DNA of 64,000 nt. Source: Eledone cirrhosa. Its lineage: Eukaryota. Within the stretch, counting starts at the first letter, position 1; the number at the start of each line of letters is the position of its first letter. A program made the translations under genes and the position numbers. The stretch spans positions 9,982,001 through 10,046,000 of the forward strand of contig OZ024758.1 in the NCBI GenBank assembly GCA_964016885.1, given 5' to 3'. Positions 23,364 to 26,819 of this stretch are shown here, in pieces. Under the pieces are notes generated by a model. That model worked only from the letters and a program-made list of their open reading frames with translations, did no database searches and was not told the origin of the DNA.

Positions 23364-23960
23364 TATATATATATATATATATATATATATATATATATAT
23401 ATATATATATATATATATATATATATGTATATATATATGTATATATACATATATGTATATATACATATATGTAAATATATATATATATATATATATATAT
23501 ATATATATATGTATATATATATGTATATATACATATATGTATATATACATATATGTAAATATATATATATATATATATATATATATATATGTATATATAT
23601 ATGTATATATACATATATGTATATATACATATATGTAAATATATATATATATATATATATATATATATATATATATATATATATATATATATATATATAT
23701 ATATATATATATATATATGTATATATACATATATGTATATATACATATATGTATATATATATATATATATATATATATATATATATATATATAAAAGAAA
23801 ATGTTCGCTTTAAATGGCTGAATACAATAAATGTAATCTGAGTTTTTCGTTTCGAATATTAATAATAACATTCGATTCATTTGCAATTACGCAAACAAGC
23901 CTCAATTTTATAGCCATGTCAGTAGAATGAACCCTTCATTCTTGCTCTTGTGTTAGCTAT

Positions 23961-24026
23961 GTGAACAGAATTGCAGACACTAATGTTTCTGGGTATCACC
24001 CTTCATCAGTACAGCTCACTGTTCAC
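23961..24026 (-). ncRNA. Type I hammerhead ribozyme motif with extended stem I (family P4)
   Basis: Minus strand: GTGAACAG-tgagc-TGTA-CTGATGA-aGGGT gat ACCCa-GAAA-CATTAGTG-TC-TGCA-att-CTGTTCAC. GUC cleavage triplet; 10.1-11.1 is an A.A mismatch. Confidence 0.75.
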
Positions 24027-24244
24027 CTGCCAAACTGTCAGAGCTATTGAAAATATATGCTATTTTCAAAAATACAGTGACTGATAGGCCTGATTTGCAT
24101 ATTATATATTTGTGTGTGTGTGTGTGTGAGTGTGATATGTGTACACATATATATATATATATATATATATAAACATATCAATATATATATATATATGTGA
24201 GTATGTATGTGTGTGTGTGTGTGTATTTCCTAACATTTACATAC

Positions 24245-24330
24245 GTTGAATCCATCCGTTTCACTGAGGAAGTTATTATCTCTGACGAGCCGTGTGAGAT
24301 AACTTCCTCGCTGAAAAGCGCGTATTCAAC
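24245..24330. mobile_element. Diverged fold-back carrying an HHR 3' half (GAAA-[C]GCGCG-TA-TTCAA)
   Basis: GTTGAAT..GTTTCA CTGAGGAAGTTAT..TCTC / GAGATAACTTCCTC GCTGAAAAGCGCGTATTCAAC. Confidence 0.55.
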
Positions 24331-24489
24331 ATACAAACTCTTTTACTTGTTCCAGCCATCCGGCTGAGGTCATGCTGGGGCACCGCCATTGTTGCTACAA
24401 ATTAACCAAGTTATGTATATTACAACGTGTTTATATATATATATATATATATATATATATATATATATATATATATATATATATATATA

Positions 24490-24781
24490 TAAAGAAAAAG
24501 AGATGAAATCGAAAATGCAACCGAAGTCTTATTTTTTTTTTAAATATATATACTTATTTGGTTCCTTTACCGTTTCGCAGTTCTTCTGCTTTTCAAAAGG
24601 TGAGTTGAGATGGAGGGTCTGTGGTTTTTCTCACATCTGAAAAACCACAGACCCTCCATCTCAACCCACCTTTTGAAAAGCAGAAGAACTGCGAATCCGG
24701 TAAAGGAACCAAAGAAATATATATATTTTAAAAAAAAATAAGACTTCGGTTGCATTTTCGATTTCATCTCTTTTTCTTTAT
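24490..24781. mobile_element. ~140-bp-arm palindrome with a minimal U3-A8 variant hammerhead in each arm (family P5)
   Basis: Arms 24490-24630 and 24639-24781, 8-nt loop. Motif consensus CCTT-TTGAAAA-GCAG aagaa CTGC-GAAA-CCGG-TA-AAGG at 24564-24600 (-) and 24669-24706 (+). Each copy has one lesion. Confidence 0.75.
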
Positions 24782-25011
24782 ACTTCCACTCGTGTAGGAC
24801 ACCTCGGTTATTTTTCATTTTGTAAAACAAACCTCACTTTCTAATATATATATATATATATATATATATATATATATGCAAAAGTTCTATTTAAAGTTGT
24901 TGGGATACAACAAGTAAATTATAAGCAAATCACTATCCAGACAGCCTCCAAAAGTAATGGTTGTATTTTAAAAGGGTACGTCAAAGCTATTTGTAAAACT
25001 GTTATATATTG

Positions 25012-25076
25012 TATTTTGTCTGATGAAGGCATACCATAATTTTATGTGGTATCCCTGAAATATGTATAATGAAATA
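25012..25076 (+). ncRNA. Type I hammerhead ribozyme motif (family P3) in TA-flanked insert ~24878-25116
   Basis: TATTTTGT-CTGATGA-AGGcATACCA taattttatg TGGTATcCCT-GAAA-TATGTA-TA-ATGAAATA. Stem II covaries relative to 14872-14936. Confidence 0.78.
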
Positions 25077-25267
25077 AATATGGTTTTATAAATATAGTTT
25101 CCATTTATTAATATCGTATATATATATATATATATATATATATATATATATATATATATAGAGAGAGAGAGAGAGAGAGAGAGAGAGAGAGAGAGAGAGA
25201 GAGAGAGAGAGAGAGAGAGAGAGAGTTAAATAAAAAGTCAAATGTTTAAAATTTATCTTCGTTTATT

Positions 25268-25322
25268 ACTGCTATATATATTTCAGTGACAGCCATCTTT
25301 GGCTGTGACCTCTTCAGGCAGT
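25268..25322 (-). ncRNA. Type I hammerhead ribozyme motif (family P6)
   Basis: Minus strand: ACTGC-CTGAAGA-GGTcACAGCCA aaga TGGCTGTcACT-GAAA-TATATA-TA-GCAGT, followed by AATAAA. Stem I is perfect and stem III is palindromic. Confidence 0.82.
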
Positions 25323-26819
25323 TTGAATTAGTATGGTATAGACAAGTACATATGTTGTTGAGGTGTATAATATTGTCAATACTCTGATATGTTGGTATAC
25401 AACCAACATATACTCAAAATCTCTCTCTCTATATATATATATATACTACTACCAGTACATTTTATCAAAGTCTATGAGGCACTTCAGAAAAGGACATTGT
25501 CCTTTTTCCTCTGGCGTAATACATAAAATATATATTATATTATATATTAATATATATCTGACTGATTGTTGTTTGAATACGCAATAGGGGGGGGGGGGGG
25601 GATAGTATGGTACCTCACACTTTTCCTGGCTCTAATGTGTATTGTAAAGCCTCTGGTGAGTAGCGAAACCCCAGCCTGCTGTACAACTTACCAAGAACTT
25701 TGAATGAGCCACGAATTGAATGATTTGCTGTATTTGCCTTCTGACTCTCTGTATTCCTTGTGTTCAAATCTTACAGAGGTCAATTTTCCGGTGGTTAAAA
25801 AGTATCAGCCCAGCCCTGAGGTGGATTCTTCTCTACAACTCATTCTCACTCCCCCCCTCTCTCTCTCTCTCTCTCTCTCTCTCTCTCTCTCTCTCTCCCT
25901 CTCTGGGGGAAATCGTAAGTGTTCAGACATGGAGAAGGGATTGGTTCCACCATGTTTAAAGCACCCAAGATACGCCGTATGCCTTAAAGGTACCCCTACA
26001 ACTCCATACGGAGTTACAGGTCCAAATTTAGATATGAGTAATTTGAGAGAAATTCGGTTGTTATATCTAGCAGGTCGAACAACCACGTAGAAGCTCCCAA
26101 TAAAGGCAAGAAGTCGCAAATTGTAACGTGTTTGTTAGCCAAAATTGATCTTTTTAGCATGTGGCTCACTAGAAGGGAAAAGAAAAAAGTGTATCCACGC
26201 TGTCGTGCATTGCATTGTCATATCTCTTTCTCTCCTCCTCATCTCTCTCTCTCTCTCTCTCGCTCTCTCTCTCTCTCTATATATATATATATATATATAT
26301 ATATATATATATATATATATATATAATATTTAGCCATTGTAGTCATTCATTTCCCCTTTGAATATTGCACAGTTCGGTGAATGAATGTCATGTGACTCCC
26401 AATGAATGTTTTTACATTTCCCGCCTTCCACAACTGAATGAGTAGTACAACTGCCCCAGGAAATCGCCATGTTCTTTTTTTATGACGCATATATATATAT
26501 GTGTGTATGTGTGTGTGTGTGTGTGTGTGTGTGTGTGTGTGTGTGTGTGTGTGTGTGTCTTTTGCATACAAATATATATATAAGTATATATATATATATA
26601 TATATATATATATATATATATGGTGTGTGTGTGTGTGTGTACATACATAAACACGAATACACATATATACTCACATGTATGGATGGGTGGATTTATAAAA
26701 ATAGAAATGTACCGTAAGAGATGAATAAAAAAAACAACATATTATTCATTAATTATTGGAAGGCGGGGGGGGGGGGGACAGAGTGAAACCTTTCCAAGGT
26801 CGATCATGCTAATTAGTGA

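Follow-up and report, generated by a model that had tools for sequence, protein, structure and literature searches.

Among Penelope-like elements (PLEs), a preference for (TA)n targets has been published for the Hydra clade and a microsatellite bias for the Neptune clade, and a linker of the CX2-5CxxC type is found in both Neptune and Nematis (portions of PMC8557442 that deal with these clades). Inverted arms, hammerhead ribozymes in pseudo-long terminal repeats (pLTRs), a pair of start sites for the reverse transcriptase (RT) and the preference for (TA)n are already published. In the relevant sections of PMC4209133, the minimal hammerheads of PLEs cleaved weakly and not as monomers, and a U3-A8 core is given for the Schistosoma PLE Cercyon; the hammerhead of the anole PLE PAc is protein-assisted, and dispensable in vitro (experimental part of PMC11167929). 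Here we compare with these systems a 1.6-kb stretch of the genome of Eledone cirrhosa, at positions 23793-25425 of a sequence of 64,000 nucleotides (assembly GCA_964016885.1, contig OZ024758.1, positions 9,982,001 to 10,046,000), called the window from here on.

The stretch holds four hammerhead insertions from four families, labeled M1, M3, M4 and M5 (Table 1), and not the five or more unrelated modules counted in an earlier note on this DNA. They are very probably separate insertions into TA repeats: two ends of Hydra-clade PLEs (M4 and M5), one end of a Neptune-type PLE (M3), and one unit lacking an open reading frame (ORF) that was likely copied in the same way (M1), all with motifs predicted to self-cleave. 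What can be seen directly are parents with RT and GIY-YIG frames, fixed ends adjoining (TA)n, inverted arms, and the combination of tailed and untailed ends.

Parents of the insertions

The M3 motifs at 24564 (-) and 24669 (+), formerly taken for two modules, lie in inverted arms that are 96% identical and belong to one insertion. In locus L155, M3 continues upstream into DKG, RYLDD, a CX4CxxC linker and GIY-YIG: positions 1684-4009 form a near full-length Neptune-type PLE frame with a single frame break, in which the DKG motif and the linker read EADKGS and CGRSNCGTC. Pfam scores GIY-YIG there at 29.9 bits, against a cutoff of 22.6, and RVT_1 at an E-value of 8e-7, just below its cutoff. Having both DKG and the linker, M3 is classed by its motifs as probably Neptune-type. 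Downstream of M3, L109 has a piece of hydra-type RT, which proved to be a separate insertion.

The parents of M4 and M5 were sought through sites with two inverted matches 4 kb apart. Loci L091 (M4) and L092 (M5) are each about 4.2 kb long, are bounded on either side by (TA)n and an inverted M4 or M5, and contain broken frames for RT and endonuclease (EN) with YRDD and GIY-YIG motifs; the same frames recur at 90-97% identity in three more M4 loci and four more M5 loci. The Hydra diagnostics RW(R/K), DKT, CxCX5C and CxxC are found, RWR in L091 only: the marks of L091 are IRWRAF, SDKTNN and CNCRNKSNC, and those of L092 are ADKTNN, CNCRNPESC and CKLC. The two parents share about 50% identity in RT. 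The view that the families have nothing in common outside the catalytic core is thus right for the RNA motifs and wrong for the parents of the motifs at 25012 and 25268, both apparently of the Hydra clade.

The order that defines an EN-bearing PLE, RT followed by a C-terminal GIY-YIG in one frame, is found in L155, and as broken frames in L091 and L092; M3, M4 and M5 have in addition the pLTR hammerhead, the inverted truncated arm and the single tailed end. By these sequence characters, M3, M4 and M5 are 5'-truncated ends (pLTRs) of PLEs. The earlier note had read the modules as 3' termini from more than one PLE or retrozyme-like family with TA as the target, and had suggested extending them until RT and GIY-YIG frames appear. 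That reading is supported: extension succeeded for M3, M4 and M5, and M1, for which it did not, is a tandem ORF-less unit.

Ends and targets

Each family has two fixed ends, spaced by 36 nt in M1, 65 nt in M3, 91 nt in M4 and 102 nt in M5, and the tails of all four begin with TAT. TA follows the tailed end in 38 of 39 M3 cases and in 28/28 for M4, against a background of 1.3%. At untailed anchors without a continuation into tail sequence, the corresponding counts are 20/20 (M3), 29/32 (M4), 21/24 (M5) and 8/12 (M1). For M1, 5/11 tailed ends run into TA and three others are tandem joins. Under a strict rule, the tailed ends of M5 reach only 7/18, because TC or a few bases intervene.

As a background sample, 40 arbitrary 10-kb stretches (400 kb) were drawn from the genome of 3.0 Gb. 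They contain 44 matches to our hammerhead descriptor, from about ten families and about 26 events, a density of roughly one motif per 9 kb that extrapolates, very roughly, to 2-3 x 10^5 motifs genome-wide. The matches are enriched near TA: 23 of the 44 have TA no more than 200 nt downstream, compared with 18% of positions drawn at random, and the same is true of 20 of the 26 events left once arrays are collapsed by hand.

Of the two ends of a two-armed insertion, one is tailed and the other untailed in 52/52 cases, plus 9/10 in a second M1 set (61/62 together), and the window copies of M3, M4 and M5 obey this pairing, which seems to be new, if modestly so.

If the in vitro behaviour of the anole PLE is a guide (experimental part of PMC11167929), the GIY-YIG endonuclease would cut a TA tract on both strands. 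Each cut end would then prime the RT at one of two start sites that lie 36-102 nt apart inside the element RNA, a different site for each end, and both cDNAs would stop early and be joined back to back. TA left on either side would keep the target alive, so that later insertions could land adjacent to earlier ones. The hammerheads would simply travel with the pLTR; they are most likely weak, or dependent on a dimer or a protein partner, and stacking would be explained without them.

Repeats beside M5

A different account is that the elements partly make their repeats: a telomerase-related RT would recopy a dinucleotide at its start, thereby adding (TC)n in M5. It might also extend (TA)n in every family, and a stack would grow out of a short AT-rich site. 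We hold this to be doubtful, although it fares best among the alternatives.

The M5 copy of the window has (TC)n at both ends before TA, on opposite strands (25161-25225 and 25420-25429), and at 343 sites of the genome the tailed end of M5 is directly followed by at least 4 TC. Thirty M5 loci (within L253-L282) were chosen for at least 4 TC: their runs have 4-86 TC units, with TA next in 29/30 by a script rule, and are one-sided, TC or GA being seen beside the untailed partner end in 0/10. In unselected M5 tailed ends, a hand count that includes the window gives at least 3 TC in 8/19. Such a repeat is found at 0/39 tailed ends of M3 and 0/28 of M4, and the length of the TC run is independent of the divergence of the copy (rho -0.04, n=51). 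In the background sample (L157-L196), compound repeats are polar, with 14 cases of (TC)n(TA)n and 0 of (GA)n(TA)n, and there are 0 TA-TC-TA sandwiches. Some of the (TC)n(TA)n in that sample follow the ends of other repeat families.

A TC target split by the insertion is an unlikely origin of these runs, because they are one-sided, specific to one family and of a length unrelated to divergence. All of this agrees with synthesis of the repeat by the RT. However, read-through of the flank of a donor copy would yield the same picture, and so would fast slippage seeded by a terminal TC beside a TA tract; the 30 loci were preselected, divergences of 1-4% make for a weak test of age, the addition of TA is conjectural, and no repeats of this kind were seen with the anole PLE in the in vitro assays that PMC11167929 describes in its experimental part. 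The RNA continuation beyond the tailed end of M5 has no common sequence among 24 matches, and a literature search found nothing on reiterative repeat synthesis by Penelope RT.

The family-specific TC run of M5 seems new, and may reflect repeat synthesis by the RT. The fuller proposal, that a Hydra-clade RT writes 4-86 TC units at its start while two subunits take different start sites, one per cut strand, is speculative, and we would not expect it to hold. If the RT does make the run, PLE priming would be connected with repeat synthesis of the telomerase kind and with the way microsatellites arise, and in this repeat-rich genome PLEs would create microsatellites as well as exploit them.

Stacking of insertions

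With insertion into pre-existing TA repeats as the preferred reading, one may ask whether the stack itself is special. Four events in 1.6 kb have a probability of about 5e-6 per tile at a uniform rate, and at least three other families lie within 3.2 kb at two of 111 loci (L041 and L042), against 0.13% expected per locus (P=0.009, again at a uniform rate). These figures could suggest that the site is special, either because hammerhead elements cooperate and draw one another in or because selection acts on the cluster as a whole, an account to which we give very little credence. About 9 such tiles are expected genome-wide even at a uniform rate; a neighbour from another family within about 1.5 kb occurs at 32/111 loci versus 25/120 background tiles (P=0.17); the copies differ in age (0.6-4.5% divergence); and TA tracts flanked left and right by PLE ends are as frequent as independence predicts, with 1 observed against 1.2 expected, and 19 against 17.9. 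Because occupancy of both sides fits independence and about 9 tiles are expected, stacks are the tail to be expected where TA-directed insertion is very frequent and mildly over-dispersed.

Two other stacks were observed: L041 has five hammerhead insertions in 1.8 kb (889-2685), and L042 has four families in 2.8 kb (214-3007). A literature search found no paper that deals with stacks of PLE ends. As a set of stacked ends that bear ribozymes, the locus is ordinary for this genome, and shows Hydra- and Neptune-type elements, with small passengers, accumulating in TA repeats.

The M1 family

Family searches gave 1991 (M1), 492 (M3), 2207 (M4) and 1124 (M5) first-look candidates, figures that are not copy numbers; 40 of each were scored. 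All four modules are young, high-copy repeats, the window copies diverging from the family majority by 4.5% in M1, 1.4-2.0% in M3, 1.0% in M4 and 0.6% in M5.

In M1, the tail joins the 5' part of the same unit, giving a head-to-tail unit of about 437 nt with 37% GC. It has no protein frame, its longest stop-free stretch being 96 codons. Pairs of adjoining units, their hammerheads separated by 437 nt, are present in L029 and in three arms among 28 loci, where the longest continuous match is 822 nt and no long arrays were seen; the window copy is one-armed. M1 thus has the sequence characters of a non-LTR (non-long terminal repeat) retrozyme, and was likely copied by the same machinery as the PLEs. 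PLE frames lie near the M1 copies in L018, L200, L212 and L214, and are not joined in sense to M1. A repeat resembling short interspersed elements (SINE-like) has been inserted repeatedly at one AATATTAATAAT site in M1 copies (L005, L013, L017, L025 and L223). A second retrozyme-like family, with one hammerhead per unit, forms 310-bp tandem arrays in L169 (251-3351, 11 units of 310 bp) and L170 (8600-9683).

The idea that no module has a PLE parent, all being retrozymes or SINE-like RNAs in their own right, fits M1 in form, no PLE frame being joined in sense to it in 29 + 28 loci, and is highly improbable as a whole: it is already refuted for M3, M4 and M5, which are continuous with RT and EN frames in longer copies.

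Hammerhead motifs

Motifs were detected with a type I hammerhead descriptor of our own, with dinucleotide shuffles as controls (1000 for the region, 60 for the window). Between 23793 and 25425 there are 4 matches, against a mean of 0.003 per shuffle; in the whole window, 5 matches have the canonical core, against 0.03. The motifs of the earlier note are thus real, and more frequent than in shuffled sequence, as it required, if fewer as insertions than it supposed. Its positions are matched at M1, 24564, M4 and M5, and the motif at 24669 (+) fails the descriptor.

The type I core (CUGANGA or U3-A8, GAAA, UH and stems I-III) is present in M1, the left arm of M3, M4 and M5. M1 has a CUGAUGA core, an extended stem I with an internal loop and a self-complementary stem III; an A.A mismatch at the base of stem II throughout the family leaves it without the R10.1-Y11.1 pair. 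The core of M3, UUGAAAA, is of the non-canonical U3-A8 kind and is present in most of 27 distinct family copies. Both window copies are damaged: the left arm is without one C of the family stem III ACCGGU, and in the right arm GAAT for GAAA breaks the A15.1-U16.1 pair. M4 combines CUGAUGA with a stem I of 8 bp and a palindrome-like stem III, and M5 combines CUGAAGA with a stem I of 5 bp and the palindromic stem III AUAUAU. The stem III words of these families are self-complementary, like those of motifs described as acting as dimers. AATAAA, which had been noted behind several motifs, is present 3' of those at 25012 and 25268, and missing after the window copies at 24564/24669 and after 23961. 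Single-sequence folding of the four families gave hairpins in the tails and no clear hairpin pair common to both ends.

Covariation was scored in 30 sequences of the M4 group, gathered by BLAST and not by the descriptor, one of 31 having been dropped for a deletion. In their stems, 94.9% of the cells are paired, and 8/19 pairs vary on both sides, 7 of these in stem II. Two-sided changes amount to 39 cells, against 12 in shuffles (0/500 reach the observed count) and 1-9 in slid controls. The stems of the M4 group therefore covary across genomic copies, as had been asked of them. The hammerheads of all four families are predicted to be self-cleaving.

Rfam, to which the earlier note had looked for confirmation, has no hammerhead match at gathering score or E<=10, the coverage of minimal motifs by its models being ungauged, and on the M3 palindrome it returns only hairpin-shaped miRNA noise. 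This result, and a half motif at 24245 that may be fortuitous, are what speaks for chance matches within AT-rich repeats, which the shuffle counts, the family-wide cores and the covarying stems of the M4 group refute for the four families and make next to impossible overall.

Several points weigh against the four-insertion reading, the silence of Rfam among them. Pfam misses the RT pieces of the Hydra type and places the GIY-YIG of L092 below cutoff, and the proposed Hydra membership of M4 and M5 was assigned by motifs rather than by an RT tree. An autonomous parent of M1 was not found in 29 + 28 loci. The covariation count is inflated by kinship and concerns one family group only, the copies of M1, M3 and M5 being too similar for such a test. 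Two insertions, L223 and L281/L282, have both ends tailed, and tails of 65-102 nt are longer than the published 30-40 nt. Finally, a search for empty sites among the loci in hand gave few candidate joins, each an end of another element; with no empty site found, the pre-existing TA target is therefore inferred.

Layout of the locus

Table 1. Features in and around the stack, in window positions. TRF: Tandem Repeats Finder.
Feature	Positions	Strand	Basis or remark
Imperfect (TA)n tract, left of stack	23363-23793	.	TRF
M1, 311-nt 5'-truncated copy of ~437-nt head-to-tail ORF-less retrozyme-like unit	23794-24104	-	family search, tandem junction
M1 tailed ("long") end	23794	-	tail 36 nt
M1 type I hammerhead motif	23961-24026	-	descriptor match 23976-24009; predicted cut between 23976 and 23975
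Decayed fold-back, CTGACGA in loop at 24282-24288, GAAA at 24313	24245-24330	.	single-copy
LINE-like element 3' end, (TAAAAGAG)n tail, without hammerhead	24337-24403	-	RT-like ORF upstream in L133
(TA)30	24432-24491	.	TRF
M3, one two-armed insertion, putative Neptune-type PLE end	24492-24843	.	parent L155
M3 left arm, untailed end at 24492	24492-24629	-	
M3 right arm, 65-nt tail at 24779-24843	24640-24843	+	
M3 left-arm minimal hammerhead, U3-A8 core UUGAAAA	24564-24600	-	descriptor match 24568-24596
M3 right-arm minimal hammerhead, U3-A8 core, GAAT for GAAA	24669-24706	+	fails descriptor
(TA)17	24844-24877	.	TRF
M4, two-armed putative Hydra-clade PLE end	24878-25116	+	parent L091
M4 inverted tail end, tailed end at 24878	24878-24919		within M4
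M4 pLTR, untailed end at 25116	24920-25116	+	
M4 minimal type I hammerhead	25012-25076	+	descriptor match 25020-25068; predicted cut after 25068
(TA)22 then (GA)33; (GA)33 is (TC)n reading from untailed M5 end	25117-25225	.	TRF
M5, two-armed putative Hydra-clade PLE end	25226-25419	-	parent L092
M5 pLTR	25226-25391	-	
M5 inverted tail end	up to 25419	+	
M5 minimal type I hammerhead, AATAAA directly after	25268-25322	-	descriptor match 25273-25317
(TC)5 then (TA)8 past tailed M5 end	25420-25445	+	

The half motif at 24245-24330 was also rejected as a hammerhead module. It has no stem I partner in place, and one DNA search and two pattern searches of the genome return only the query itself, so that both stem I closure and family support failed; a scrambled order of type SGC/CSG, compared by eye, does not fit either. 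Just past it, on the minus strand, lies the 3' end of an element resembling long interspersed elements (LINE-like), which we take to be of the CR1 group. Its (TAAAAGAG)n tail often runs into (TA)n, in the window copy and in L124-L152.

The window is rich in microsatellites overall (TRF). It has further hammerheads at 14880 (-), of the M4 group, and at 52994 (-): the first belongs to a subfamily insertion with an inverted arm (14744-15077), the second (52994-53032) to a family with a longer stem III. A young repeat with copies 97-99% identical is found at 22791-23362, 49947-50537 and 55906-57347, its end adjoining (TA)n, and its first copy is the left edge of the stack. A tRNA-like sequence at 37985-38058 (-) scores 75.8 bits in Rfam.

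Comparison with known systems

The biology of this locus is largely known: it presents new families of Hydra- and Neptune-type PLEs, with a retrozyme-like passenger. Compared by eye with Hydra-1_Obim and the Hydra clade, as described in the corresponding portions of PMC8557442, M4 and M5 are alike in their RWK-like, DKT and CxCX5C motifs, and also in the pLTR hammerhead, the insertion in (TA)n, the inverted 5'-truncated arm and the tail at one end. They and their hammerheads differ from Hydra-1_Obim in sequence, and their tails measure 91 and 102 nt, against 30-40 nt for Hydra; the (TC)n that separates the tailed end from TA, specific to the M5 family, is not part of the Hydra description in those portions. 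M3 resembles the Neptune clade of the same source in DKG, in CX2-5CxxC before GIY-YIG, in its microsatellite bias and in its pLTR hammerhead, and departs from it by a 65-nt tail and by U3-A8 as the core of the family consensus.

The minimal hammerheads of metazoan PLEs, in the sections of PMC4209133 devoted to them, are likewise of type I, with a short palindromic helix III and a U3-A8 variant, and also come as opposite-strand pairs 100-700 bp apart and mostly as truncated single copies; nothing essential differs in the predicted motifs of the window. M1 shares with the non-LTR retrozymes covered in parts of PMC7229834 and bioRxiv 10.64898/2026.07.22.740005 a tandem unit in the range of 150-450 bp, a low GC content, the lack of an ORF and an extended type I hammerhead. 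Unlike them, it occurs as dispersed two-armed insertions of less than 2 units, with a 36-nt tail of PLE type and an A.A mismatch at the base of stem II.

The closest functional parallel is PAc, the anole Poseidon PLE studied in vitro (experimental part of PMC11167929), where two internal RT start sites bound a tail and both strands of an AT-rich target are cut and extended. In PAc the strands do not differ in start site, whereas here the arms nearly always use different starts. The strict pairing of tailed and untailed ends and the family-specific TC run yield exact predictions that suit a PLE system already established in vitro.

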